Positions 1 through 58,642 of a stretch of DNA of 64,000 nt are shown here, piece after piece. The position numbers were made by a program, and so were the translations under genes. The stretch's first letter is position 1; every line of letters begins with the position of its first letter. Source of the stretch: Escherichia phage kaset; the sequence record PV245935.1. One strand, given 5' to 3'. Under the pieces are notes generated by a model. The model was given only the letters and a program-made list of their open reading frames with translations, was not told the DNA's origin and ran no database searches.

Positions 1-596
1 AAGGTCTGGAGGGTATTGCGGATTACTACCTGAAAGAAGGTCAGGATGTGGATTTTGACCCTCAAAAAGATTCACGGTCGGTGCAACCGTCTACCCTTCC
101 AAGCGTCAAAGGTAATGTCGTTAACTTACGACACAACGTTGGAAAGATGGACGCAGCATCGTTACCTAAGATGAAGTTGCACGGGCTGATTCTTGGGATT
201 GAGAATCCTCGCAACAGCATCCGTAGAGGGAACAGCCTTGACGGTGAATGGGCAGTCAAGATGCCGCATCACTACGGATTCATCAAGGGCACTAAGGGCG
301 CGGACGGCGATGAAGTCGACTGCTTTGTTGGTCCAAATATGAAGTCGCCGAAGGTCTTTATCGTTAACCAGAACGATAATTACTCTGGCGAGTTTGATGA
401 ACACAAGTGTATGCTTGGATTCGATTCAGCAGAAGAAGCGAAAGAAGCTTATCAAGCATCATTTGGTAACGGTTGGAATGGATTCGACTCAATCCACGAA
501 TTAGATGTGAACTCATTCAAGGAGTGGTTGAAGGGTGATTGCTCTCAAGCATACGGAGCACTCAATAATCCTACTAATTCACCGAAGCAAGGTTGA
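1..596 (+). CDS. Partial CDS (5' end outside window); C-terminal region carries an inorganic-pyrophosphatase-like signature
   Basis: Frame is open from window start into track ORF 48..596; motif YGFIKGT...DGDEVDC fits the family I pyrophosphatase pattern D-[SGDN]-D-[PE]-[LIVMF]-D as I recall it. Confidence 0.5.
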   Translation, partial: GLEGIADYYLKEGQDVDFDPQKDSRSVQPSTLPSVKGNVVNLRHNVGKMDAASLPKMKLHGLILGIENPRNSIRRGNSLDGEWAVKMPHHYGFIKGTKGADGDEVDCFVGPNMKSPKVFIVNQNDNYSGEFDEHKCMLGFDSAEEAKEAYQASFGNGWNGFDSIHELDVNSFKEWLKGDCSQAYGALNNPTNSPKQG

Positions 597-597
597 T

Positions 598-1449
598 ATG
601 GCTTTTAAAGCTTCGAAAAAACGTGAGCGCCGCTCACCCGATAGAATCGGGCGCGGCAGTCCGATAATCCCATCAAACGCTATTGCGATGGCCTACCGTC
701 GTGAGATGAAAGGTCTTTGCTATGCGATGATTGATGACTATCAGGAAGGCATTTCAGAATGGCTTGACAAGAAGCAGGTGCAGAAGTTTTTTGCGCAAGA
801 CTCTGCTGATTCGACATTCCAGACCCTTATGAAACGGCTGCAGCTGAAATGGGCAAAGGCGTTTGCACGTGTTGGGTCGAAGATTGCTGCTGATTTTGTC
901 AAATCGGTCGAAAAGGGTGCCACTTCTGCTACATTCGCCAGCCTTAAGTCCGCAGGCATAGAAGCGCCAAAGGCCACGTACAACAAATTCGTTGAGAACA
1001 CTCTTAGAACAAGCGAGACATTTAACACGACTCTAGTGACCAAGGTCGGCGAGGATATTCACAACAGAGTGTACGAAGCAGTAATGCTTTCACTGACTTC
1101 GCCCGACCCAGCCAAACAAGGCACGTCAGGCATTCAGGCGGCGCTGCGAAACGTCAAACACTTTTCTGCAAAGAGAGTCGATTTAATCGCTAAAGATCAA
1201 ACAAGTAAATTGTATTGCGTTCTAAGCGATGAAAGAATGCGCCAGAATGGAGTTGAAGAATTTGAGTGGGCGCACTCAGGAGCAGGAAAGGAGCCGCGAA
1301 TCTCTCATGAACACGTCGACGGAATGAGATTCAAACTTGATGACAAGCGTCTATGGGAAGTTGGCGGAGAATTGAAGTTCAAAAAGGGCGACATCGGTCC
1401 TCCTGGATGGGCGATACACTGCAAGTGCAGGAAAATACCAATCATTTGA
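598..1449 (+). CDS. Head morphogenesis protein, Mu F / SPP1 gp7-like
   Basis: ATG at 598 overlaps upstream stop (TGATATG); C-terminal R-x-S-H-x-H-x-DG motif (PRISHEHVDGMRF) typical of MuF-like minor head proteins. Confidence 0.7.
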   Translation: MAFKASKKRERRSPDRIGRGSPIIPSNAIAMAYRREMKGLCYAMIDDYQEGISEWLDKKQVQKFFAQDSADSTFQTLMKRLQLKWAKAFARVGSKIAADFVKSVEKGATSATFASLKSAGIEAPKATYNKFVENTLRTSETFNTTLVTKVGEDIHNRVYEAVMLSLTSPDPAKQGTSGIQAALRNVKHFSAKRVDLIAKDQTSKLYCVLSDERMRQNGVEEFEWAHSGAGKEPRISHEHVDGMRFKLDDKRLWEVGGELKFKKGDIGPPGWAIHCKCRKIPII

Positions 1450-1456
1450 GGTCATT

Positions 1457-2377
1457 ATGACGATACCAATCAGCACGTTTCCTCTATCTGGACAAACGCC
1501 AGTATTACCTGCTGTATATGCGAACGGTTTGGCGATTGTTTCAGAATTTACATCCGATAAAAATTTGATTGTTCCATTGAGTCCGCCATTGGCATCTGGA
1601 TACAATTCAGTCGGACAATTCTTTATGATCGGTAATGATGGAGATTCTACCAGCAAACCGAATCTGACCCTTTCAGTCCCCAAAATGAACATAACAGACG
1701 TGCAGACTGGTTTGACTGCATCTACAATCACCATCGCTTTTGGAGAAGCAGTGATTATAGGCATGGAGTCTGGAGGGTCCAAGAATGCTGTCGCCGTTAA
1801 AGTAGTCAAATCCAGCGGCAACCAATACACATTACCAGCAGCAACGGCTTCTGTTCTTGGCGGAGTCAAAATAGGGAGTGGCATAAGCGTTGCAGGTGAC
1901 GGTACAATTAGCGTGACTCAATACTCATTACCGATTGCATCAGCATCAACCTTGGGTGGCATAAAGGTAGGTACGACACTATCAATTGATGGTTCTGGAG
2001 TTCTCAATGCTGCTGCAAGCACTGTGCAGAACGCAAGCAACAGCGTAAGCAATCCTCCGACAACTCTGGTGAATCTGGCAACCTTAAACCTGCCTGCAGG
2101 GAAATGGCTTGTGACAGCAAGTCAGTTGACTGTTGCGACAGAAGGAGTTCAAGCGAATACCGGAATTACAGTCAAACTGTCAACAAGTAATTCAGATATT
2201 ACGGATGATGCATTTACGATGTCAGCTGGCATTCGGGCTGCAGGTCGTTTCGGCGGCAATATTCCAACAAAAATAATTACTCTTGCCGCGCCTGGCAACG
2301 TGTATCTAAACTATCAATGCACAGACGCATTGACATCTACCGTTTACGGACAGATCACCGCAATTAAGTTGAACTAA
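1457..2377 (+). CDS. Structural protein with internal Gly/Ser-rich repeats (decoration or fiber-like)
   Basis: RBS GAGG before ATG; repeated segments LGGVKIGSGISVAGDGTISV / LGGIKVGTTLSIDGSGVL. Confidence 0.6.
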   Translation: MTIPISTFPLSGQTPVLPAVYANGLAIVSEFTSDKNLIVPLSPPLASGYNSVGQFFMIGNDGDSTSKPNLTLSVPKMNITDVQTGLTASTITIAFGEAVIIGMESGGSKNAVAVKVVKSSGNQYTLPAATASVLGGVKIGSGISVAGDGTISVTQYSLPIASASTLGGIKVGTTLSIDGSGVLNAAASTVQNASNSVSNPPTTLVNLATLNLPAGKWLVTASQLTVATEGVQANTGITVKLSTSNSDITDDAFTMSAGIRAAGRFGGNIPTKIITLAAPGNVYLNYQCTDALTSTVYGQITAIKLN

Positions 2378-2387
2378 AGAGGAAGTT

Positions 2388-2525
2388 ATGCAAAAGATTA
2401 TTCAGTCACGTTACGTTAAAGTGCGAAATATTAATTGCAACTCTTTGCTTTCTTGGAAATGGGCTGTTTACGACTCGATGCTGATTGGCGTTTTAGTTGC
2501 TGGAGTGCTTTTTAATATTCACTGA
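2388..2525 (+). CDS. Small hydrophobic protein (45 aa), hypothetical
   Basis: Strong RBS AAGAGGAAG 4-11 nt before ATG; C-terminal hydrophobic stretch MLIGVLVAGVLF; below the ORF-track size cutoff. Confidence 0.4.
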   Translation: MQKIIQSRYVKVRNINCNSLLSWKWAVYDSMLIGVLVAGVLFNIH

Positions 2526-2539
2526 ATCGCCTGGCAGTG

Positions 2540-2835
2540 GATTGCCGCAGGATTTTACGCGTATAATGACGTATCATCCGTATCAAGTAAGTAGTTGTTT
2601 TCAAAAGAATCTTACGGATGATACGGATGATACGCGTTGCCGCGATACTTTATAGGAATTCAAATAAATTAATTTAAAATTATATATCTAATTTAATTTT
2701 ATTTTTTTATAAACTCTTATATATGAAAAGTATCCGTATCATCCGTATCATCCGTAGCACACCAGTGATAGCGCGGCTTATACACCGATACGGATAAAAA
2801 TACGCCTCATTTTATCCGTATCATCCGTATCACAC
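2540..2835. repeat. Iteron-like module A: 9-mer ATCCGTATC arrays in direct and inverted orientation around an AT-rich core
   Basis: Direct copies at 2576-2584, 2732-2756, 2814-2831; inverted TACGGATGA x2 at 2613-2630; AT-rich 2646-2730; homologous to 54601-54890. Confidence 0.7.
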
Positions 2836-2889
2836 TAATTAAGGCGCGGCTATATCGGTTGTTATACATATTCAAACCATAATTATTGT

Positions 2890-2918
2890 TTGCCTAAGTT
2901 TTTTTCATTAGATATAAT
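2890..2918 (+). promoter_or_regulatory. Sigma70-like promoter candidate upstream of the scaffold/capsid genes
   Basis: -35 TTGCCT (2890-2895), 17 bp spacer, -10 TATAAT (2913-2918); ATG at 2942. Confidence 0.4.
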
Positions 2919-2941
2919 ACACAATACTTATTTGAGGGTGG

Positions 2942-4363
2942 ATGCGAATGCAAACGGCACGCGAAATTGACAAAAATGGATTCTTGACGATTGTGGGTTG
3001 TCCCATTTCGTCATTTGGCATTTTTGATTATTCTGCAGGTCAGGTTGGACTTGATGGTGATCCGAATCGCATCGTAAAAGTTTATCGCCCAGAGTCAGCG
3101 GTGAAAGACCCCGAAGCGATAGATTCATTCAAAAATATCCCTTTCATCGACAATCACGAAATGCTTTCTGGATTCGAAGGTGATGAGGATAACACGGCAC
3201 CCGAAGAGTATGGCGTTGATGGAGTTCTAACTGGCAATGTTTATTATGACAAGCCATGGATGCGCGGCGACCTTAAAGTTTTTAGCCGTCGTCTGAAGAA
3301 AGCCATCGATTCTGGAAAGGTTGACTTGTCTTTGGGCTATGACTGTGAATTCATCATACAGTCTGGAGAGTTTGACGGGCAGCCGTATGAAGTGGTACAG
3401 ACAACTCTTCGCGGCAACCACATTGCTCTCGTGGACGTTGGTCGAGTACCAGGTGCACGGGTGCTGGATGGTCGTTGCTTTGACCATCTTTGTTTGACGA
3501 CTGTAACACCATCCAACGAGGATTTAGATATGCCAAAACCGTTAAAAGGTAAAGCGCGTGATAATGCTGTTGAACAGCTGAAATCACTGATCCCTGCGCT
3601 CGAACAATTTCTGAATGAAGAGAGCACCGAAGCTGCTCATCAGGATGAAGTTGAAGTGAAAGCAGAAGAGAAGGATTCAACCGAAGAACGTGAAGAAGTG
3701 ATGGTTGATCCAGAAGTCAAAGCAGAAGCTGAAGAGACTCCAGAAGGTGAAGAGAAGTTTGAAGTTGAAACTGAATCTCACGCTGGTGGCGAGCTTCCGC
3801 AACTGATCAGCCAAATCGAAGCACTTATTGCAAAACTGAAAGGTGGCGCGGTAGGTGATGAAGAAGAAGTTGAAGCCGAAGTCAAAGACGAAGAAGAAGT
3901 TGAAGTCAAGGCTGAAGATGTATCACCTTGCGACAAAGCTGAAGATGTGGTTAGCGGCCTGCAAAACAGCAACGTAAAGGGGGCTTCGGTCGAAAAAGAT
4001 GACAAACCGACAAAAGCGGCGAAAGCGTCGCCAGGTCCAGCAAAAGGGGAACACTCAATGGCATCTGATTCAGCAGTTGCTGCTTTCTACGCTGATTCTG
4101 CTCGTAAGAATAGCCTCTACCAGCGCCTGTCTAAAGTTGTTGGTGCCTTTGATCATGCAACTATGGACTCCAAGTCCGTAGCGAAATATGGCGCTAAAAA
4201 GTTAGGCTTGAAGTGCGTTGATGGCGCTGAGTTTGACGTTGTGGATAACTATCTGCGCGGCGTTGAACACGGTCAAAAACAGCGTGTAGTCGCAAAACAA
4301 AAGGCCGCTGCGGATTCTGCAGCAACTGACGAAGCATTTGAAGCTTGGTTGAAAGGGGAATAA
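2942..4363 (+). CDS. Putative scaffolding / prohead assembly protein with acidic repeat region
   Basis: Lies immediately upstream of the capsid candidate; long E/V/K-rich acidic repeats (EEVEAEVKDEEEVEVKAED); RBS GAGGG. Confidence 0.55.
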   Translation: MRMQTAREIDKNGFLTIVGCPISSFGIFDYSAGQVGLDGDPNRIVKVYRPESAVKDPEAIDSFKNIPFIDNHEMLSGFEGDEDNTAPEEYGVDGVLTGNVYYDKPWMRGDLKVFSRRLKKAIDSGKVDLSLGYDCEFIIQSGEFDGQPYEVVQTTLRGNHIALVDVGRVPGARVLDGRCFDHLCLTTVTPSNEDLDMPKPLKGKARDNAVEQLKSLIPALEQFLNEESTEAAHQDEVEVKAEEKDSTEEREEVMVDPEVKAEAEETPEGEEKFEVETESHAGGELPQLISQIEALIAKLKGGAVGDEEEVEAEVKDEEEVEVKAEDVSPCDKAEDVVSGLQNSNVKGASVEKDDKPTKAAKASPGPAKGEHSMASDSAVAAFYADSARKNSLYQRLSKVVGAFDHATMDSKSVAKYGAKKLGLKCVDGAEFDVVDNYLRGVEHGQKQRVVAKQKAAADSAATDEAFEAWLKGE

Positions 4364-39805: not shown

Positions 39806-40651
39806 TTATTCCGCTTGATCACCGTCTTCGGCATCGTCGTTGGATTCAACATCGACAAACTCGATGTGGCCCATCTCTTCCAGCTTGCTCAGGTAGGAGC
39901 GAACGGAAGCGCCAAACAGTTGATCTTTAACTTTTTCGCCCAGCTCATCGATAGACTGCGCCACGCCAACTTCGCCTTCTTTGATCGCCGCTAGAACGCG
40001 TCCACGGGTGGAATGCTCTTGCGGCTGGCTCAGGCCATTGCCAGTGTAGATGAAGTGGGTTGCTTTTGCACGACGCTGACCGTTTGCCTTTTTAGCAGCC
40101 TTACGTTCTGCGATGGCTTTGCGACGTTCTTCAGCTTCTTGCTTACGCTGTTCTTTCTGCTGTTCTGCAGCTTCTTTTGCCGCAATCTTAGCAGCTTCAC
40201 GCTCTGCCTTGCGTTTCGCTTTAGCTTCTTCTTTGGCCTTCTCTTTTTCGGCCTTCGCTGCAGCACGGGCTTGATCACGCTCTGCTTTCTTAGCAGCAGC
40301 TTGTTCAGCTTTCAGGCGCTTGGCTTCTTCTTTAGCCTTTGCCTTTTCGATTTCTTTCGCTGCTTTAGCGGCTTCACGCTCTGCTTTCTTAGCAGCAGCC
40401 TTTTCTGCGCGCTCTTTGGCCTTCTTAGCTGCTTCTTCAGCACGCTTCTGAGCCTTCTCATCAGCAGCCTGCTTGCGTTTCAGTGCAGCTTCTTCACGCT
40501 TGGCTTGTTTTTCCTGCTCACGCTTCTGGCGTTTTTCTTCGGCTTCTTTCTTTTTAGCCAGGCGTTTTTCTTCAGCCACGCGACGACGTTCTGCTGCAGC
40601 TGCTTGTTTTTCTTCTTTAGATAATACTTTGATTGCTTCGGCCATGTTCAC
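39806..40651 (-). CDS. Highly charged Lys/Ala/Glu-repeat protein with globular C-terminal domain
   Basis: About 200 aa of KAE-rich low-complexity repeats (AEEKR, KAKEEAK) then acidic tail; nucleotide-level repeats gcttctttagc. Confidence 0.5.
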   Translation of the reverse strand: MNMAEAIKVLSKEEKQAAAAERRRVAEEKRLAKKKEAEEKRQKREQEKQAKREEAALKRKQAADEKAQKRAEEAAKKAKERAEKAAAKKAEREAAKAAKEIEKAKAKEEAKRLKAEQAAAKKAERDQARAAAKAEKEKAKEEAKAKRKAEREAAKIAAKEAAEQQKEQRKQEAEERRKAIAERKAAKKANGQRRAKATHFIYTGNGLSQPQEHSTRGRVLAAIKEGEVGVAQSIDELGEKVKDQLFGASVRSYLSKLEEMGHIEFVDVESNDDAEDGDQAE

Positions 40652-40804
40652 AGTCCTTAAATAAATTAGTTTATTTTATATTCCCCGTTTGGGATAACTT
40701 AATTATGCCTTCAGTCGCCGCCAGTAGCAACTAAAAACTCTGGCGGCAATGCCACTTTAATTAAACTGATTTTCAGTTTTATTTTTCGTAAATTTACGTC
40801 AACA

Positions 40805-41989
40805 TTAACGCGCTTTCAAATCACGGTACACGGTCAGATTCTTTTTAGCGCGGGTGATGGCGGTGTACATCATCTTGGAGTACGGAACGCCGCGCAAGAT
40901 TTCTTCCAGCACGCACACATTGTCCCACTCGCTGCCTTGCGATTTGTGCACCGTTATGACATAGCCATAGTCCATGCCTCCAACAGCGCGTTGGGCCTCT
41001 TTGCGCACTTCCTGATCAGTAGAGAAGGAAAGAGGATTTATCTTCACCTTTATATCTTTGCCATCGGTAAGCGAGCGCAAATTGACATACATTATTTCAT
41101 TGGACTCGTCTTCATCCCTTTCAAAGTCCGGTACTGGCTCATAACTAATAACAATCCCTTGCTCGCCATTACAGAATCCTGGACCGTGTTGGTTGAATGT
41201 GCAAATAACTTTCTCGCCGATTCCTGGCATTGGCGTTATACGTCCGCTCACTTGGCGCAATAATGAATTCCATTTATCTTTGGTGCTATTATATGAGCAA
41301 ATAATTTGATCATCTTCGCCCATGAATTTCTTCAACGCAGTAACGCGCGGCGATTCAGCCAAAACCTTGACGTCATCGTATTCACGCGGAGGAAGTCGGT
41401 TGCCCTGTCGCACGAAGAAGGAAGCGCGGATTATGTTTGACTCTTTTCCTTGCCGCATGATTTCGGTTAACAGTACGTCAACGGCATCTTCAGTAAAGTA
41501 GGCGGCGGCTTTTACCGGAGGGACTTGTCCAATGTCGCCTAATGCCAGAACAGGGATGCGGTGATCAAGAAGGCGCTCTGTGTCCCACTCGCCAACCATT
41601 GAAGCTTCATCAAGGACGACAAGATGCGGCCTTTCATCAAGCGTTGACTTCCTTGCAAAGATTGGTTCATTGTCATCGTTAACGCCGCGCACGTTATAGA
41701 TGAACTGATGAAGGGTCTTAGCGCCACGACACCCTTTCTGCTTCAATCGGCTGGCGGCCTTTCCGGTCGGCGCAATATAAATGGCACCGTACTCACCGAC
41801 ACAACGGCGCACAATCTCACGCGCAATAGATGTTTTACCTGTTCCTGCATAGCCAGCGATGAAAAACACGCGCTTCGTTGTTTTACCGTCCTGCAATCGC
41901 TTGTACCATGCAACGGCCTTTTCGATGGCATCAATTTGTTGCGCGTTGAACTGAATCACTGGCTCATTATTAAATTCTGGAATGTTCAT
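40805..41989 (-). CDS. SF1B helicase, Dda/RecD-like
   Basis: Walker A AGYAGTGKT; VLDEASM (motif II); VHKSQGSEWDNV and TAITRAK (motifs V/VI). Confidence 0.7.
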   Translation of the reverse strand: MNIPEFNNEPVIQFNAQQIDAIEKAVAWYKRLQDGKTTKRVFFIAGYAGTGKTSIAREIVRRCVGEYGAIYIAPTGKAASRLKQKGCRGAKTLHQFIYNVRGVNDDNEPIFARKSTLDERPHLVVLDEASMVGEWDTERLLDHRIPVLALGDIGQVPPVKAAAYFTEDAVDVLLTEIMRQGKESNIIRASFFVRQGNRLPPREYDDVKVLAESPRVTALKKFMGEDDQIICSYNSTKDKWNSLLRQVSGRITPMPGIGEKVICTFNQHGPGFCNGEQGIVISYEPVPDFERDEDESNEIMYVNLRSLTDGKDIKVKINPLSFSTDQEVRKEAQRAVGGMDYGYVITVHKSQGSEWDNVCVLEEILRGVPYSKMMYTAITRAKKNLTVYRDLKAR

Positions 41990-54600: not shown

Positions 54601-54890
54601 GTATAGAATTTAAGCGTATAATGACGTAAGATTTGGACCTATCCGTAGTTCACTCCACACACTTCTATGGTGCGCCGCGACTGGGTTCAATGGTACATCT
54701 TACGGATGATACGGATGATACGCGTCGCCGCTATACTTTATACAACTTTGAAAAAAACAATTAACTCCATTTTGAATTAATTTAAATTAATTTTTTTCTA
54801 CATCCTCATACTTATACTAAAATTATATTTATACGTATTATCCGTAAGATATAAATAAAAACAAAGACTTGCGGCAATACGGATGATACG
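54601..54890. repeat. Iteron-like module B, homologous to 2540-2835
   Basis: Shared GCGTATAATGACGTA; inverted TACGGATGA x2 at 54689-54706; CGCTATACTTTATA; AT-rich core 54721-54850; further copies at 54826-54834 and 54864-54887. Confidence 0.7.
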
Positions 54891-55047
54891 CCATGATACG
54901 CTTCAGCCAGCCAGCAGCGGCTAAGTCATTGATTTGCATAACAAGCGGCGAAAGGGATGGATTTCTTTTATACGTATCAAACAGTACACCACGCACCACG
55001 GTCCATTATTCATTCAGCACTATGATTTATGTACTTTTACAGCCAAT

Positions 55048-55094
55048 TTGAACATCAATCTGCACTTGAATATAATGTTCATTCATTGTATAAT
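55048..55094 (+). promoter_or_regulatory. Tandem sigma70-like promoter candidates upstream of 55129 gene
   Basis: TTGAAC-17 bp-TATAAT (55071-55076) and TGTATAAT (55086-55093). Confidence 0.4.
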
Positions 55095-55104
55095 TCACAC
55101 TATT

Positions 55105-56584
55105 AATTTGCACTATGGGATTTGCACTATGAGTCAAGATTATGTAGCAATGCCTGAAGACTTTGAAGACCCGCGATTTGCAGAGCATAATCAGGCATTA
55201 TTCGATGAGTTCATTGACCTTGTTATTCAGGGCCATGACATGCGCGCAGCTTTTGCACTAGTATTTGGCATGGAGGTTGCGACCGATAACTACACTGGCC
55301 AGCGAATCCTGTGCACGCAACGCAATCCGTACTACAAGATGCGCTACAAAAAGCGTATGGAAGAGATGCCATTGAAGGAATTGTGGAGCGTAAAGAGTTC
55401 CATCCACAATTTAGTGAAGCTTGTGCGTGATCCAGAAGTCGCGGCATCAGCCAAGCTTAATGCCATTCGTGAACTGAATATCATCTACGGCATCACGATG
55501 ATTGATGAAAACGGCAATAGTAAAATGGGCCGTTCCATGGACGATTTCTACAAGGATTTTGGAGAGGCAGCCAAAGAGGGTGAGCAATTCTCCCGCCACT
55601 AGCCAATTTGCACTATAAAACGGCCCTAGAACACATTTTCTCCACTTCTAGGGCCATCGGTAATACGACGGTGAATGCTGCAACCATAAACGCGTTAGAA
55701 AGTGTATTATTATAAGTCATCTTTTAGTCACTTTACGTAACAATTTACGACCTTCCGCCGTCCAGTCGAACGACTCCACCAGCAGATTTGCACTATAACC
55801 TAAGACGATGCGCCCTTTCTCGTTATCGACCCGCCAACAAGTCTCGAATAGCATTCGATTTGCACTATTAACTATCACCGCAACGCGCGTTGGGTAAGCG
55901 CAATTTGCACTATGGTCGTAAAGGGATAAGGTGCGACCACTTCCGATGGACAACGTAGCGATGAGAATGAGTGTGTTCATAAGCCACCAATTTGCACTAT
56001 GAAAAGCGACCCCGAAGGGCCGCCATTCGATTAGATGATCTGGAAGGTGTAGGATTTGTTGCCGAACTCAAAGTTCAAGCGCCCAGCTTCCTTAAGCTTC
56101 ATACGGAAGCGAATGTGCTTGCTATCCGGTAAGCCCAGCGCGGCGAACGCTACGCGGACCGATTTGAACTCGCCTACACCCTCGACCATAACGCCGTTGC
56201 GCGTAAGACGCTTTTGCGCTACTTCCTTGTTGTCCCAACTTTTTGCAATACCTTCGCTATTCGAACGGCGATGGGAAGGAGTTCCATTTTGCACTACGCA
56301 ATTTGCACTATCGTTTAGGCCGCTCTTAACGAAGGCTTCATACTCTTCGTCGGTCATCGCGTCGAGTTCTTCCTGGGTCGGCTCGGCCTTTTTAACGACC
56401 GCACGCGCCTTATGCGTTTTTACATCGCTGGACACTTCCTCGCGCGGCTTCGCGTCGGGGATGGGCGATTCGTTGGACGGCTCATCGAGCGCGTTTAAGG
56501 ACTCGATTAACGCGATTACGCGAGTCTCGGCGGTACGGCGGTCCGCGAACTTTTTAATCGGCTTCGAACCGGAATTTGCATTAT
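55105..56584 (+). repeat. Dispersed same-strand array of ATTTGCACTAT motifs
   Basis: Copies at 55105, 55120, 55605, 55786, 55858, 55902, 55989, 56300; variants at 56286 and 56573; related AATTTGCAGTACACT at 58462 and 58559. Confidence 0.7.
55129..55602 (+). CDS. Hypothetical protein (candidate regulator; ATTTGCACTAT motifs overlap its start)
   Basis: ATG 55129; track N-terminal extension runs through promoter region and is rejected. Confidence 0.5.
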   Translation: MSQDYVAMPEDFEDPRFAEHNQALFDEFIDLVIQGHDMRAAFALVFGMEVATDNYTGQRILCTQRNPYYKMRYKKRMEEMPLKELWSVKSSIHNLVKLVRDPEVAASAKLNAIRELNIIYGITMIDENGNSKMGRSMDDFYKDFGEAAKEGEQFSRH

Positions 56585-56657
56585 AAAATGCAACGAGGTC
56601 GGCGGTCTTAGTTGCGATAACGTCGCCGCTAGTCGAGAAGCGATTTAAGCTAACCAT
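56031..56657 (-). CDS. Hypothetical protein in CpG-rich block
   Basis: 208 aa ORF; CG-rich codon usage distinct from rest of window. Confidence 0.5.
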   Translation of the reverse strand: MVSLNRFSTSGDVIATKTADLVAFYNANSGSKPIKKFADRRTAETRVIALIESLNALDEPSNESPIPDAKPREEVSSDVKTHKARAVVKKAEPTQEELDAMTDEEYEAFVKSGLNDSANCVVQNGTPSHRRSNSEGIAKSWDNKEVAQKRLTRNGVMVEGVGEFKSVRVAFAALGLPDSKHIRFRMKLKEAGRLNFEFGNKSYTFQII

Positions 56658-56737
56658 AATAAACTCCTATTTGTTAGGGCGCTAGGCGCGAAAGAATTTT
56701 ATTAAAGCGCCGCGCACGACGCTCTAAAAATCCTCTC

Positions 56738-57022
56738 TTACGCTTCGACGAGGGAGAAGGTCTCAAATTCTTCTTCGCCCATAACGAGTAAAATATTACC
56801 GATTTCGACCGCTTCGAAGAAGTATCCGTTAACGTTTACTTCGAAGGCTTCGCGGTCCGATTCCGGTAACGCCGCGTAAAGTTTAAAAGCTTCGGCGACC
56901 GTTACCCCACCCGCTTCGATAGTTTGGTCTACGTTCGCGGCGTAGACTTCGGATAAATTTTGTTTTACGCCGTAGTTCTCGACGATAGCGTTACGGATAG
57001 AAGAAACGTTAAGAATAGCCAT
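56738..57022 (-). CDS. Small protein, member of paralog family (with 57655..57945)
   Basis: Shared pattern SEVYAANVDQTIE / ESVYLSNVDAIIE and VNGYF..EIG / INGFV..EIG. Confidence 0.55.
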   Translation of the reverse strand: MAILNVSSIRNAIVENYGVKQNLSEVYAANVDQTIEAGGVTVAEAFKLYAALPESDREAFEVNVNGYFFEAVEIGNILLVMGEEEFETFSLVEA

Positions 57023-57245
57023 TTTAAACTCCTAGTTGGGAGAGGCGTTAACGACCTATTCGTTAACTCATCCCGTCCCGATATGAGTACATTATAATAT
57101 AGTGTAGAAAAAAGTAAAGCACTTTTTCGATAAAAATGCGATAAATTATTTTATCTTTTTTCTTTACTTCTTCGTACACTCGCGTATACTTGTTTATATC
57201 GAGACGGGCGATGGCCTTTCTTCTACTATCATCGGGAGCTTTATT

Positions 57246-57548
57246 ATGACTACTTTAATCTCTTCCATCCTTACTTACGACGAAGACCGTTTAACCGTTC
57301 GCTCTCTTATCGCCGCCGTTAACGCGGAACTAGAATCTAGCGCCATTAAGGTCCGCGCTTTCGTCTTCGCTAGTCTTTCCTTCGACGAAATTAAATACGC
57401 CGAACGTAGCGCCATCCGCTTCGCGAAGACCGACGACGAAGCCGTTACCCTTATCGAGACGGTTACGCCGCGCGGCGAAGCGTTAATTATCGTCGAGTAT
57501 ATCGACGTAGAAGGCGATAAATCTTATAAATATTTTATCGCAGAATAA
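57246..57548 (+). CDS. Small protein, possible distant paralog; flanked by 16-bp inverted repeats
   Basis: Preceded by promoter-like module; inverted repeats GTAAAGCACTTTTTCG (57114-57129) and CGAAAAAGTGCTTTAC (57549-57564). Confidence 0.5.
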   Translation: MTTLISSILTYDEDRLTVRSLIAAVNAELESSAIKVRAFVFASLSFDEIKYAERSAIRFAKTDDEAVTLIETVTPRGEALIIVEYIDVEGDKSYKYFIAE

Positions 57549-57654
57549 CGAAAAAGTGCTTTACTTCTTCGTACACTAAGACTATACTTATTTATATCGA
57601 GAGGGGAGAGGAAGCGAATAGGTCGCTACCCTCCCGACTAACTAGGAGAATATT

Positions 57655-57945
57655 ATGATCACTTTATCCGCTATCCGTTCCGCTCGCGTCGAAACTTCCG
57701 AAAACTCTAACATATTTGGCGAAACCTTAGAGAGCGTTTATCTCTCTAACGTCGACGCGATTATCGAGTCTATTTATGAGCCGATCAACTTCCTCGACCT
57801 TTACAAGTATCGCGACGAGGACATCGTATCCTGCCGCGTAACGATTAACGGCTTCGTCTATACGATTACCGAAATCGGCGGCGAATATATCGCTGTACCG
57901 CAACTCGGCGGAGAAGTGACTTATTTTAAAATCGTCTCCTTATAA
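57655..57945 (+). CDS. Small protein, member of paralog family (with 56738..57022)
   Basis: RBS AGGAGA; preceded by duplicated promoter-like module. Confidence 0.55.
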   Translation: MITLSAIRSARVETSENSNIFGETLESVYLSNVDAIIESIYEPINFLDLYKYRDEDIVSCRVTINGFVYTITEIGGEYIAVPQLGGEVTYFKIVSL

Positions 57946-57963
57946 TACCCTTCCGTTACTAAT

Positions 57964-57990
57964 AGGCCGCGCTTAGTCGCGGCTTTTCTT
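57964..57990 (+). terminator. Rho-independent terminator candidate
   Basis: GGCCGCG-CTTAGT-CGCGGC hairpin followed by TTTTCTTCG. Confidence 0.5.
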
Positions 57991-58642
57991 CGTCCCTATC
58001 TCGATGCGCTTCTCCGCGAAAACTCCTTTATTCTTCCCTTCGTCGTCTCATAATCTTCTTCGAGATGCTCCTTAGTTCGCATAACGGGTATTACGTTAAA
58101 TGGAGAACATCGCGTAAGTCCTTGTTTTATATAGACACCTATATCGGACCGTTAAGGCGGGTCGCGTAAGTCGTTGTTTTATAAAGGCGCAAAACTTTCC
58201 CTTCGTTCCGAACTAAAACGAGAAATATGCGGACCCTTCGCCCGAAAATAGTACGCATACGAAATTACCGACATCTAAAATAATCCCCGCCTATATTATC
58301 CTACACGCAATCATTAGCCTTCGAATCATTATGCTTCATATTATTATGCATCGAATCATTCGCTTTCGAATTGTAACGCTGGAAACTGTAACGGCGATTG
58401 ATTATTGCGTTCGTGTGGTTTTTAGGGCATGGGTCTTTTGGTGCGTTTTGGTACTTGATGAAATTTGCAGTACACTAATCAAAATATGACACATTTGGTC
58501 CACTAACTTTTCAAAGAAAAAGTCCTAGACAGTACCGTACTATTTTGTGCCCACAGTAAATTTGCAGTACACTCCTGCGCGGCAGGCAAAATAAAGGGCC
58601 GCCACAGCGACCCACGATTCACGGTTAAATCAGCAACACCCA

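Follow-up and report, generated by a model that had tools for sequence, protein, structure and literature searches.

A CA/TG-purged island in the terminal repeat of Wifcevirus phages and its possible role as a leading module

The 64,000 nucleotides of Escherichia phage kaset analysed here (record PV245935.1; hereafter the window) carry, at positions 56307-58303, an island from which the dinucleotides CA and TG are almost completely purged. The phage is a Wifcevirus, 96% identical to phage Mansfield, that is an E. coli/Shigella myovirus of ~68 kb, and the island occupies the outer 2 kb of its direct terminal repeat (DTR), 140-215 bp from the right physical end of the genome. The purge acts at the level of the DNA duplex; it is specific to this position, was imposed in situ and has been maintained across deep divergence. 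The block may well represent the outer DTR part of a T5-like pre-early, or leading, module that is kept free of nuclease targets. As far as we found in a full-text literature search, a maintained, near-complete CA/TG purge of a terminal repeat has not been described. The two elements that the analysis concerns are the following.

54769..58441 (or to ~58519), no strand: direct terminal repeat, present once in the collapsed assembly
56307..58303, no strand: CA/TG-purged island, enriched in CpG and TpA, delimited by maximal scoring segment, dinucleotide observed/expected ratios (o/e) and delta*

Depletion of CA and TG in the DNA duplex

The original prediction, made from the letters of the window alone, had pointed to positions 56031-58300 as a CpG-rich block. 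As expected, CpG o/e is 2.05 in this block, compared with a mean of 1.14 (sd 0.18) for equal-size windows (z=5.0, 99.5th percentile), and a composition equal to the genome average is thereby refuted. The GC content does not differ (0.467 in the block, 0.463 elsewhere); a GC island was therefore ruled out, and of the sliding-window checks that had been proposed only the CpG ratio, not GC, sets the block apart. The full dinucleotide table shows that CA/TG o/e is 0.38 in the block versus 1.18 elsewhere, while CG reaches 2.04 versus 1.09 and TA 1.18 versus 0.66. The block differs from the rest by a Karlin distance delta* of 0.232, when other equal-size windows give 0.047+-0.018 with a maximum of 0.123. 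The maximal scoring CA/TG-poor segment, which we use to define the island, has CA and TG at 3.41% of its steps against 14.24%, and 12 of the 15 longest CA/TG-free runs of the window fall within it; its right edge is sharp, while the left one grades into the gene g208. Across the block ~0.108 CA/TG steps per bp are lost and ~0.09 CG and TA steps gained, with the total pyrimidine-purine content being kept. Thus, the richness in CpG and TpA results from the conversion of CA/TG by transitions, and is a leftover rather than the primary signal. In Bas99, a complete relative, the island is the sole genome region with a CA o/e below 1.

The sense strand of every island gene is poor in CA as well as in TG, whether the step falls at codon positions 1-2, 2-3 or 3-1. 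The effect reaches the amino acid level, with His, Gln, Cys, Trp and Met together making up 1-4% of the three small island proteins versus 10.6% in other genes, and NCA, CTG, TTG and GTG codons being virtually absent. The atypical, NCG-rich codon usage noted in the original prediction does correspond to a real CpG excess, but this excess lies mostly at codon junctions (0.26-0.30 per codon versus 0.095) and is secondary to the CA/TG depletion. The gene encoding pA94, a 94-aa island protein, contains 6 CA/TG steps, whereas 34+-4 are expected from its own protein sequence and the genome codon usage (2,000 simulations, minimum 21) and 42+-5 from a generic gene segment. Concomitantly, the intergenic DNA of the block has 3.65% CA/TG versus 13.4-14.2%. 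Since coding and intergenic DNA are both affected, on both strands, the depletion is a property of the DNA duplex and not of codon adaptation or of the mRNA.

The longer words of the island were also monitored. CTAG occurs 14 times in the block when 1.9 occurrences are expected. Pooling the island with those of two divergent relatives (contigs L039 and L041, see below), GATC is avoided beyond what the island composition predicts (6 versus 35.6, z=-5.0, Markov expectation), and CCGG is under-represented on the same basis (16 versus 36.5). In each of the three islands taken singly, CAG/CTG ranks first or nearly so among the depleted trinucleotides (0.08, 0.08 and 0.19 of expectation). Four-bp palindromes are commoner in the island than expected (164 versus 113+-12), which rules out generic palindrome avoidance, and the 6-mer vocabulary is 18% smaller. 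Avoidance of mRNA-interferase sites (MazF, ACA) was ruled out as well, with ACA being among the least depleted CA words and both strands being hit. DNA hypermodification was considered an unlikely cause, the curated annotations having no modification genes and the phage having been rebooted from PCR fragments (PMC11074155). Elsewhere in the window, 40001-41000 holds the extremes of AT skew (-0.40) and GpC o/e (1.96); tandem repeats were sought at 40-41 kb and none was found.

Organisation of the terminal repeat and proteins of the island

The extent of the DTR was taken from two relatives. The PhageTerm repeat of Mansfield (1-3673) maps to 54769-58441 of the window, and the record of phage WFC holds both repeat copies, with 1-3784 being 100% identical to 68689-72472 and mapping to 54769-~58519. 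The left part of the DTR has a normal composition and carries the small terminase gene, g87 and a repeat array. The features of the DTR and its right boundary are listed below, with isoelectric points (pI) where they were calculated.

55106..56584, plus strand: array of 10 AT(T/C)TGCACTA(T/C) repeats, all on one strand, 8 exact and 2 variant
55129..55602, plus strand: small terminase subunit gene (Mansfield annotation, phrog_4783), with 77 CA/TG versus 65-70 expected
55717..55980, minus strand: g87, small basic protein (pI 9.7) with 3 in-frame repeat copies, dN/dS 0.09, orthologs in L039 and L041
56031..56657, minus strand: g208, 208-aa basic protein (pI 8.9), phrog_4730, with the island boundary inside the gene
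56738..57022, minus strand: pA94, 94-aa acidic (pI 4.05) orphan, paralog of pB96
57091..57118, minus strand: putative sigma70-type promoter copy 1 (TTTACT, 16 nt, TATAAT), towards pA94, in inverted repeat I1
57163..57190, plus strand: putative sigma70-type promoter copy 2 (TTTACT, 16 nt, TATACT), towards p100, in direct repeats D6 and D10
57246..57548, plus strand: p100, 100-aa acidic (pI 4.57) orphan, orthologs in L039 (125 aa) and L041 (122 aa)
57560..57588, plus strand: putative sigma70-type promoter copy 3 (TTTACT, 17 nt, TATACT), towards pB96, by consensus match and repeat
57655..57945, plus strand: pB96, 96-aa acidic (pI 4.23) orphan, paralog of pA94
57964..57985, plus strand: intrinsic-terminator-like hairpin after pB96, also annotated in Mansfield and WFC
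57986..58303, no strand: CA/TG-poor non-coding tail of the DTR, holding a direct repeat at 58110 and 58162
58461-58476 and 58558-58573, plus strand: two exact copies of AAATTTGCAGTACACT, straddling the right DTR boundary (58441 or ~58519)

The original prediction had proposed that 56738..57022 and 57655..57945 encode paralogs, and we could confirm this for pA94 and pB96 (32% identity, E=8e-6 in BLASTP), with P0140 and P0145 as further members of the family profile. The regions upstream of the two genes form an inverted duplication (57029-57151 versus 57528-57657, ~76%). The possible third paralog, p100, did not hold: BLASTP returned no match between p100 and pA/pB and hhalign a probability of 0.2%. 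By its sequence relationships p100 is a family of its own, with orthologs in two distant lineages. In WFC, Bas98 and Bas101 an unrelated gene of 104 aa takes the pA slot, no relationship to the pA/pB family having been detected for the WFC one, and the slot is empty in ECML-117, Eco4M-7 and RCIP0319.

Two pB96 alleles exist in the genus, with 61.5% aa identity and a dS of ~1.2 over codons 40-96, and both are purged. Their N-terminal 39 codons and flanking DNA are ~93% identical between the window and the WFC/Bas98 orthologs. The restriction of the divergence to codons 40-96 indicates a recombinational exchange of a gene segment. The small island proteins are under purifying selection (dN/dS 0.08-0.33); positive selection on pB96 is not supported by its pairwise dN/dS of 0.33, the alleles being simply ancient. 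Modelling predicts for pB96 an alpha/beta fold without a solved relative, a first AlphaFold model from a shallow alignment (pLDDT 51) having been discarded. In BFVD, the model weakly resembles A0A5B9NNY6 of Erwinia phage vB_EamM_TropicalSun (E=1e-3, TM-score 0.64) and A0A513QBN4 of Shigella phage MK-13 (TM-score 0.57), both uncharacterised small proteins. Phage early proteins may share the predicted fold more often than sequence comparison reveals.

The gene g208 is 92-100% identical within the genus, and a search of a large protein collection gave near-identical copies among the matches listed. CA/TG counts differ between its halves, with 17 versus 42 expected in the N-terminal half and a near-normal 29 versus 35 in the C-terminal half. 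The family (phrog_4730) was found on many uncultivated 64-72-kb viral contigs and has an invariant N-terminal motif, KTADLVAFYN...KKF(A/S)DR, and a C-terminal one, SNSxG..SW...LPDxKHIRFR; its profile had no match among PDB sequences. Pfam, PHROGs and PADLOC gave nothing informative on the island proteins, with PHROG matches only to function-unknown families, and the structure and profile searches that had been suggested likewise led to no Pfam, PHROG, PADLOC or fold assignment. For none of the island proteins was a function recognised by homology.

The three promoter copies, identified by consensus match alone, are divergently arranged. Their -35 hexamer is TTTACT, when the consensus TTGACA would carry both TG and CA. 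A 19-mer of copy 3, CTTTACTTCTTCGTACACT, recurs in L039. The repeats of the array surround the small terminase gene; in g87 and g208, both on the minus strand, they are part of the reading frame and encode x-Ser-Ala-Asn. Array position and orientation are kept in L039 (4210-5200) and L041 (409-1410), and the array always adjoins the inner island edge; it is possibly a packaging recognition site or an element like the T5 injection stop signal (iss). The AAATTTGCAGTACACT pair is related to the array repeat and may mark the terminase cut region. In the non-coding tail, where only very short open reading frames (ORFs) are found, the direct repeat reads TCGCGTAAGTC[C/G]TTGTTTTATA[T/A]AG (58110-58134 and 58162-58186). 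The DTR, this repeat included, was scanned for Rfam families and tRNAs and had no match.

A position-specific signature imposed in place

The original prediction had interpreted the block as horizontally acquired. In such a case the island would retain the exotic dinucleotide signature of its donor, and the left compositional boundary is instructive in this respect, as it lies inside the vertically conserved g208 and not at a gene or mobility-element boundary. No integrase, tRNA or flanking mobility repeat was found around the island in Pfam and tRNA scans. The g208 N-terminal domain (KTADLVAFYN...KKFADRxTAExR) is common to genes 34-38% identical (tblastn) on uncultivated 64-72-kb viral contigs, and a CA/TG-poor island is absent from these contigs (best segment score <=9 versus ~130). 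At aligned g208 positions, 0.04-0.19 CA+TG per codon are found in the window versus 0.31-0.46 in the distant homologs, which are normally composed.

Within the genus the island is a mosaic, with a variable pA slot, optional genes of 51 and 69 aa and the two pB alleles, and the purge is as strong in the non-homologous 104-aa cassette as elsewhere in the island. Presence/absence mapping in related phages, which had been proposed as a check, thus did uncover mosaic cassettes, but these argue against import as the non-homologous ones are equally purged. An exhaustive profile search of 1.84e9 (1.84 billion) representatives returned only two further family members, both on the contigs of divergent relatives, L039 and L041, and a P0140 search in viral contigs had no match. 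Of the 16,354 bp of L039, only 307 can be aligned with the window phage, and the proteins of the two contigs have diverged deeply, with identities of 45-51% for the small terminase subunit, 45-49% for g208, 35-36% for pB and 27% for p100. Synteny and island are nevertheless conserved in both, the island again beginning inside a g208-like gene. It spans 5429-7276 in L039, with a CA o/e of 0.16 versus 1.15, CG at 2.4 and TA at 1.25, and 1702-3454 in L041, with a CA o/e of 0.35 versus 1.03. The ATG start is the sole CA/TG of the L039 pB-like (312 bp) and p100-like (378 bp) genes. One of the small plus-strand genes that precede the repeat-equivalent region in L039 (1346-1957) encodes a macro-domain-like protein (weak Pfam Macro matches).

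In order to follow current changes, we aligned 12 Wifcevirus genomes and took minority alleles as derived, with an expectation matched by mutation type and coding class; the polarisation is approximate and recombination is frequent in the region. Derived changes that create CA/TG number 65 in the island versus 84.2 expected (z=-2.8), while the flanks give z=+2.7 and +2.2. Amelioration of imported DNA predicts an excess of such changes, and a deficit is seen. It is true that the extreme contrast in delta*, the frequency of CTAG, a word normally avoided in coliphages, the orphan status of the genes and a cassette content that differs between isolates would all suit an import. However, unrelated cassettes and two deeply diverged lineages carry the signature at the matching position, and neither 5.8e9 protein clusters nor the 1.84e9 representatives yielded a donor or an outside homolog. 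We know of no cellular or viral genome with a CA/TG o/e of 0.16-0.38. A horizontal origin is therefore hardly credible. Altogether, the boundary within g208, the purged cassettes, the divergent lineages, the pB alleles and the mutational deficit reveal a signature maintained by selection at its position, and not a legacy of transfer.

A candidate leading module and its alternatives

The DTR stands at both genome ends and would therefore be among the first DNA in the cell, and the distance of the island from the right terminus makes it possible that these are the first 2 kb to enter. We propose that host RNA polymerase would transcribe pA94, p100, pB96 and g208 from the three copies of one strong promoter before the remaining genome is exposed. 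The scarcity of CA/TG would then be a selected depletion of nuclease targets, hiding the leading segment from sequence-specific DNA-targeting activities that would act while only this segment is inside the cell; host restriction-type systems and a phage-induced nuclease destroying host DNA are the candidate agents. Packaging would begin near the terminase gene and the repeat array on the left of the DTR and, the last packaged DNA being the first ejected, the right-end DTR copy would enter first, in the order terminus, island, repeat array and then the rest. Within the island, pB96 and p100 would be read outward, pA94 and g208 inward. Such a right-end-first entry would explain why the outer 2 kb only are purged.

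T5-like phages resist restriction-modification (RM), CRISPR and Ssp systems as long as their first-injected terminal repeat is free of sites (PMC10644984), and in Autographiviridae RM sensitivity is determined by the leading region (PMC12455610). Wifceviruses, for which no protection mechanism is known, resist nearly every restriction system tested, EcoP1_I being the exception, although their EcoP1_I and EcoCFT_II site numbers are similar (PMC11990801). Our site counts reproduce all published counts exactly (Bas98 and Bas99, the five systems besides EcoCFT_II). In the BASEL papers the EcoCFT_II motif appears in a figure only. CACAG is the sole 5-mer with exactly 93 sites in Bas98 and 92 in Bas99, from which we infer that EcoCFT_II recognises CACAG. 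Sites were then mapped in silico in the DTR of Bas98, Bas99 and Bas101, with the following outcome.

EcoRI: 0 sites in the DTR (18-19 in the genome); resistant
EcoRV: 0 sites in the DTR; resistant
EcoAI-type (EcoCFT_I): 0 sites in the DTR; resistant
EcoKI: 0-1 sites in the DTR; resistant
CACAG (EcoCFT_II, motif deduced from counts): 0-1 in the DTR, never in both orientations (~5 expected); resistant
AGACC (EcoP1_I): 5-6 in the DTR, in both orientations; very sensitive

The DTR site maps agree with the published efficiency-of-plating phenotypes (PMC11990801) for 6/6 systems, and EcoP1_I, the one restricting system, is the only one with a cleavable site configuration in the DTR. AGACC has no CA/TG step, while CACAG has two CA steps.

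The resemblance to the first-step transfer (FST) DNA of T5 extends to several features. Both regions lie in a long direct terminal repeat, hold mostly small function-unknown genes, in T5 in divergent host-polymerase units and here behind putative, divergently arranged promoters, and have a repeat-rich zone at their inner border; in both, restriction insensitivity is observed despite sites in the DNA and sensitivity tracks the sites inside the repeat (PMC10644984). With the entry order proposed above, the layout would also be that of T5, namely terminus, outward unit, divergent promoters, inward unit and injection stop signal. The T5 repeat (NC_005859, 1-9140) is itself a dinucleotide outlier (delta* 0.17-0.25 versus 0.02-0.08), with, as in the island, a ~1.8-fold rise in CpG o/e (1.35 versus 0.75), a GC content of 0.399 versus 0.384, a 7-fold excess of GCGC (106 versus 14.7 expected) and a shortage of AGAG (13 versus 69). 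This deviation is not mentioned in the T5 papers examined. In contrast to T5, the island has no A1 (metallophosphatase), A2 or dmp homolog in Pfam and PHROG scans of the DTR proteins, the Wifcevirus repeat is 3.7 kb and not about 10 kb, and the phage is a 68-kb myovirus related to Pbunavirus. Two-step entry is known for T5, while here it would hold only by analogy, through the oriented array at the inner island edge. The signatures also differ, T5 combining AG/GA depletion with GCGC enrichment where Wifcevirus has a near-total CA/TG purge of the outer 2 kb.

Other leading regions share part of this picture. Like the site-free leader of T7-like phages (Ocr/gp0.3) and the early regions of Murciavirus, the island would place small acidic proteins behind strong host promoters in first-entering DNA, and there too sensitivity is decided by where restriction motifs lie in the leading region (PMC12455610); the T7-like leaders are not known to have a purge at the dinucleotide level. 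pA94, p100 and pB96 recall Ocr and ArdA as small, strongly acidic proteins at a leading end (pI 4.05, 4.57 and 4.23), but they are not homologs (no Pfam match), and the predicted alpha/beta fold of pB is unlike a helical DNA mimic. The leading regions of conjugative plasmids (PMC13478746) also have a raised codon adaptation index (CAI); however, they are GC-rich and codon-adapted without being consistently motif-depleted, while in the island GC is unchanged and one dinucleotide nearly gone. Classical palindrome avoidance likewise involves short words under-represented by selection, and GATC and CCGG are avoided in the islands, but it is genome-wide and concerns 4-6-bp palindromes, whereas the island is a local 2 kb depleted in a non-palindromic dinucleotide pair, with palindromes commoner.

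Several points weigh against the proposed leading module, in which early expression, stepwise entry and the leading end are inferred. Only the right ~2 kb of the 3.7-kb DTR is purged, and the normal left half is unexplained if the whole DTR enters first. The restriction concordance comprises six systems, and rare sites can be absent from 3.7 kb by chance (~1 EcoRI site expected), such that only the contrast between CACAG and AGACC is informative, the CACAG motif being itself deduced; moreover, several phages have one EcoKI site inside the island. The loss of one dinucleotide leaves about half of arbitrary 5-7-bp recognition sites in place, and generic type II avoidance is not the driver since short palindromes are not avoided. 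There is no motif common with T5, whose repeat is depleted in AG/GA and not in CA/TG. The island proteins match no known anti-defence family or fold in Pfam, PHROGs, PADLOC or structure comparison, nor did the DTR proteins that were compared with Pfam and PHROGs include a recognisable nuclease.

The near-total purge is more consistent with an agent of 2-3-bp specificity than with avoidance of 5-7-bp RM sites, and we tentatively suggest, while considering it rather improbable, that a nuclease of this kind, the phage's own or an unrecognised host activity, drives the one-dinucleotide purge across the lineage in the first minutes of infection. A more specific form of the leading-module proposal is self-nuclease immunity, in which an early phage function degrades host DNA at short CAG/CTG-like sites; the leading segment would lack these sites and the remaining genome would enter, or be protected, later. 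The L039 genes of 312 and 378 bp that keep only their ATG, the 0.08, 0.08 and 0.19 of expected CAG/CTG in the three islands and the outlier composition of T5 FST DNA suit this account. Davison proposed a phage-induced nuclease that destroys host DNA for T5 A1 and FST DNA (10.1101/866236), and host DNA degradation in T5 requires A1, which is also sufficient for it (10.64898/2026.04.02.716235); with a very fast development of ~10 min (PMC7048862), Wifceviruses would gain from rapid nucleotide scavenging. Nevertheless, the scanned DTR proteins show no recognisable nuclease domain, host DNA degradation is unreported for Wifcevirus, and the remaining phage genome, with its normal CA/TG, would need a separate protection. 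We therefore hold self-immunity to be possible but unlikely. A constraint in cis is less probable again. Here a protein that binds the TGCA-cored AT(T/C)TGCACTA(T/C), such as the small terminase in packaging or a factor that makes DNA entry pause, as happens at the T5 iss, would have to be kept off the stretch from the array to the genome end, where every partial site with CA/TG would be removed; total removal of CA/TG with an amino-acid cost far exceeds what avoiding an 11-bp site requires. What speaks for such a constraint is the oriented array next to the inner island edge in three lineages, the related repeats flanking the outer DTR boundary, and the repeat-rich injection stop region at the inner end of the T5 repeat.

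Translational optimisation, that is codon adaptation for very fast early-gene expression, does find some agreement in the codon analysis that the original prediction had called for. The island genes have a CAI of 0.38-0.42 (82nd-92nd percentile of phage ORFs, w values of Sharp & Li 1987), NCA avoidance and NNC preference raise the CAI, and plasmid leading regions show codon adaptation instead of motif depletion (PMC13478746). Yet CTG, the optimal Leu codon, is used for 0 of ~45 Leu codons and TTA (w~0.02) is preferred, the depletion is equal in intergenic DNA and at codon junctions, whole amino acids are removed, and both strands are poor in TG as well as in CA. As the cause of the purge it is very unlikely, and codon adaptation contributes at most within the DNA constraint. 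We attribute as small a probability to a local mutational bias, by which a repair or replication process at the repeat end would convert CA/TG to CG or TA. All the needed conversions are indeed transitions, the pyrimidine-purine step total is conserved, and the region adjoins a DNA end that probably undergoes processing as concatemers form. However, the purge is near-perfect in ORFs and spares functional ATGs and promoter bases, it reaches the amino acid level in proteins under purifying selection (dN/dS 0.08-0.33), and minority alleles in the island create CA/TG more often than they destroy it (65 versus 19), opposite to a removal bias. To our knowledge, no process makes both A>G and C>T specifically at CpA.

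Returning to the leading module, a T5-like, target-free leading repeat would offer a testable account of restriction resistance in Wifcevirus, in which site position in the DTR accounts for the lone EcoP1 sensitivity while total site number does not. An anti-defence or host-takeover role, close to the host-interaction role that had been suggested originally, is plausible from the DTR location, the putative promoters, the acidic orphans, the mosaicism and the published phenotypes, and makes pA94, p100, pB96 and g208 candidate pre-early factors. For phage therapy and engineering, recoding or insertions in the island may abolish restriction evasion. A local dinucleotide outlier in the terminal repeat, present also in T5, suggests a simple scan for leading regions. 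If a nuclease of 2-3-bp specificity is indeed responsible, the island would provide a computable signature of leading regions and anti-defence genes in uncultivated phages, and the first sequence-level answer to how the first-injected DNA of T5 survives during the destruction of host DNA. The extension of the purge to protein composition, across lineages that can no longer be aligned as nucleotide sequences, represents an unusually strong constraint at the DNA level.

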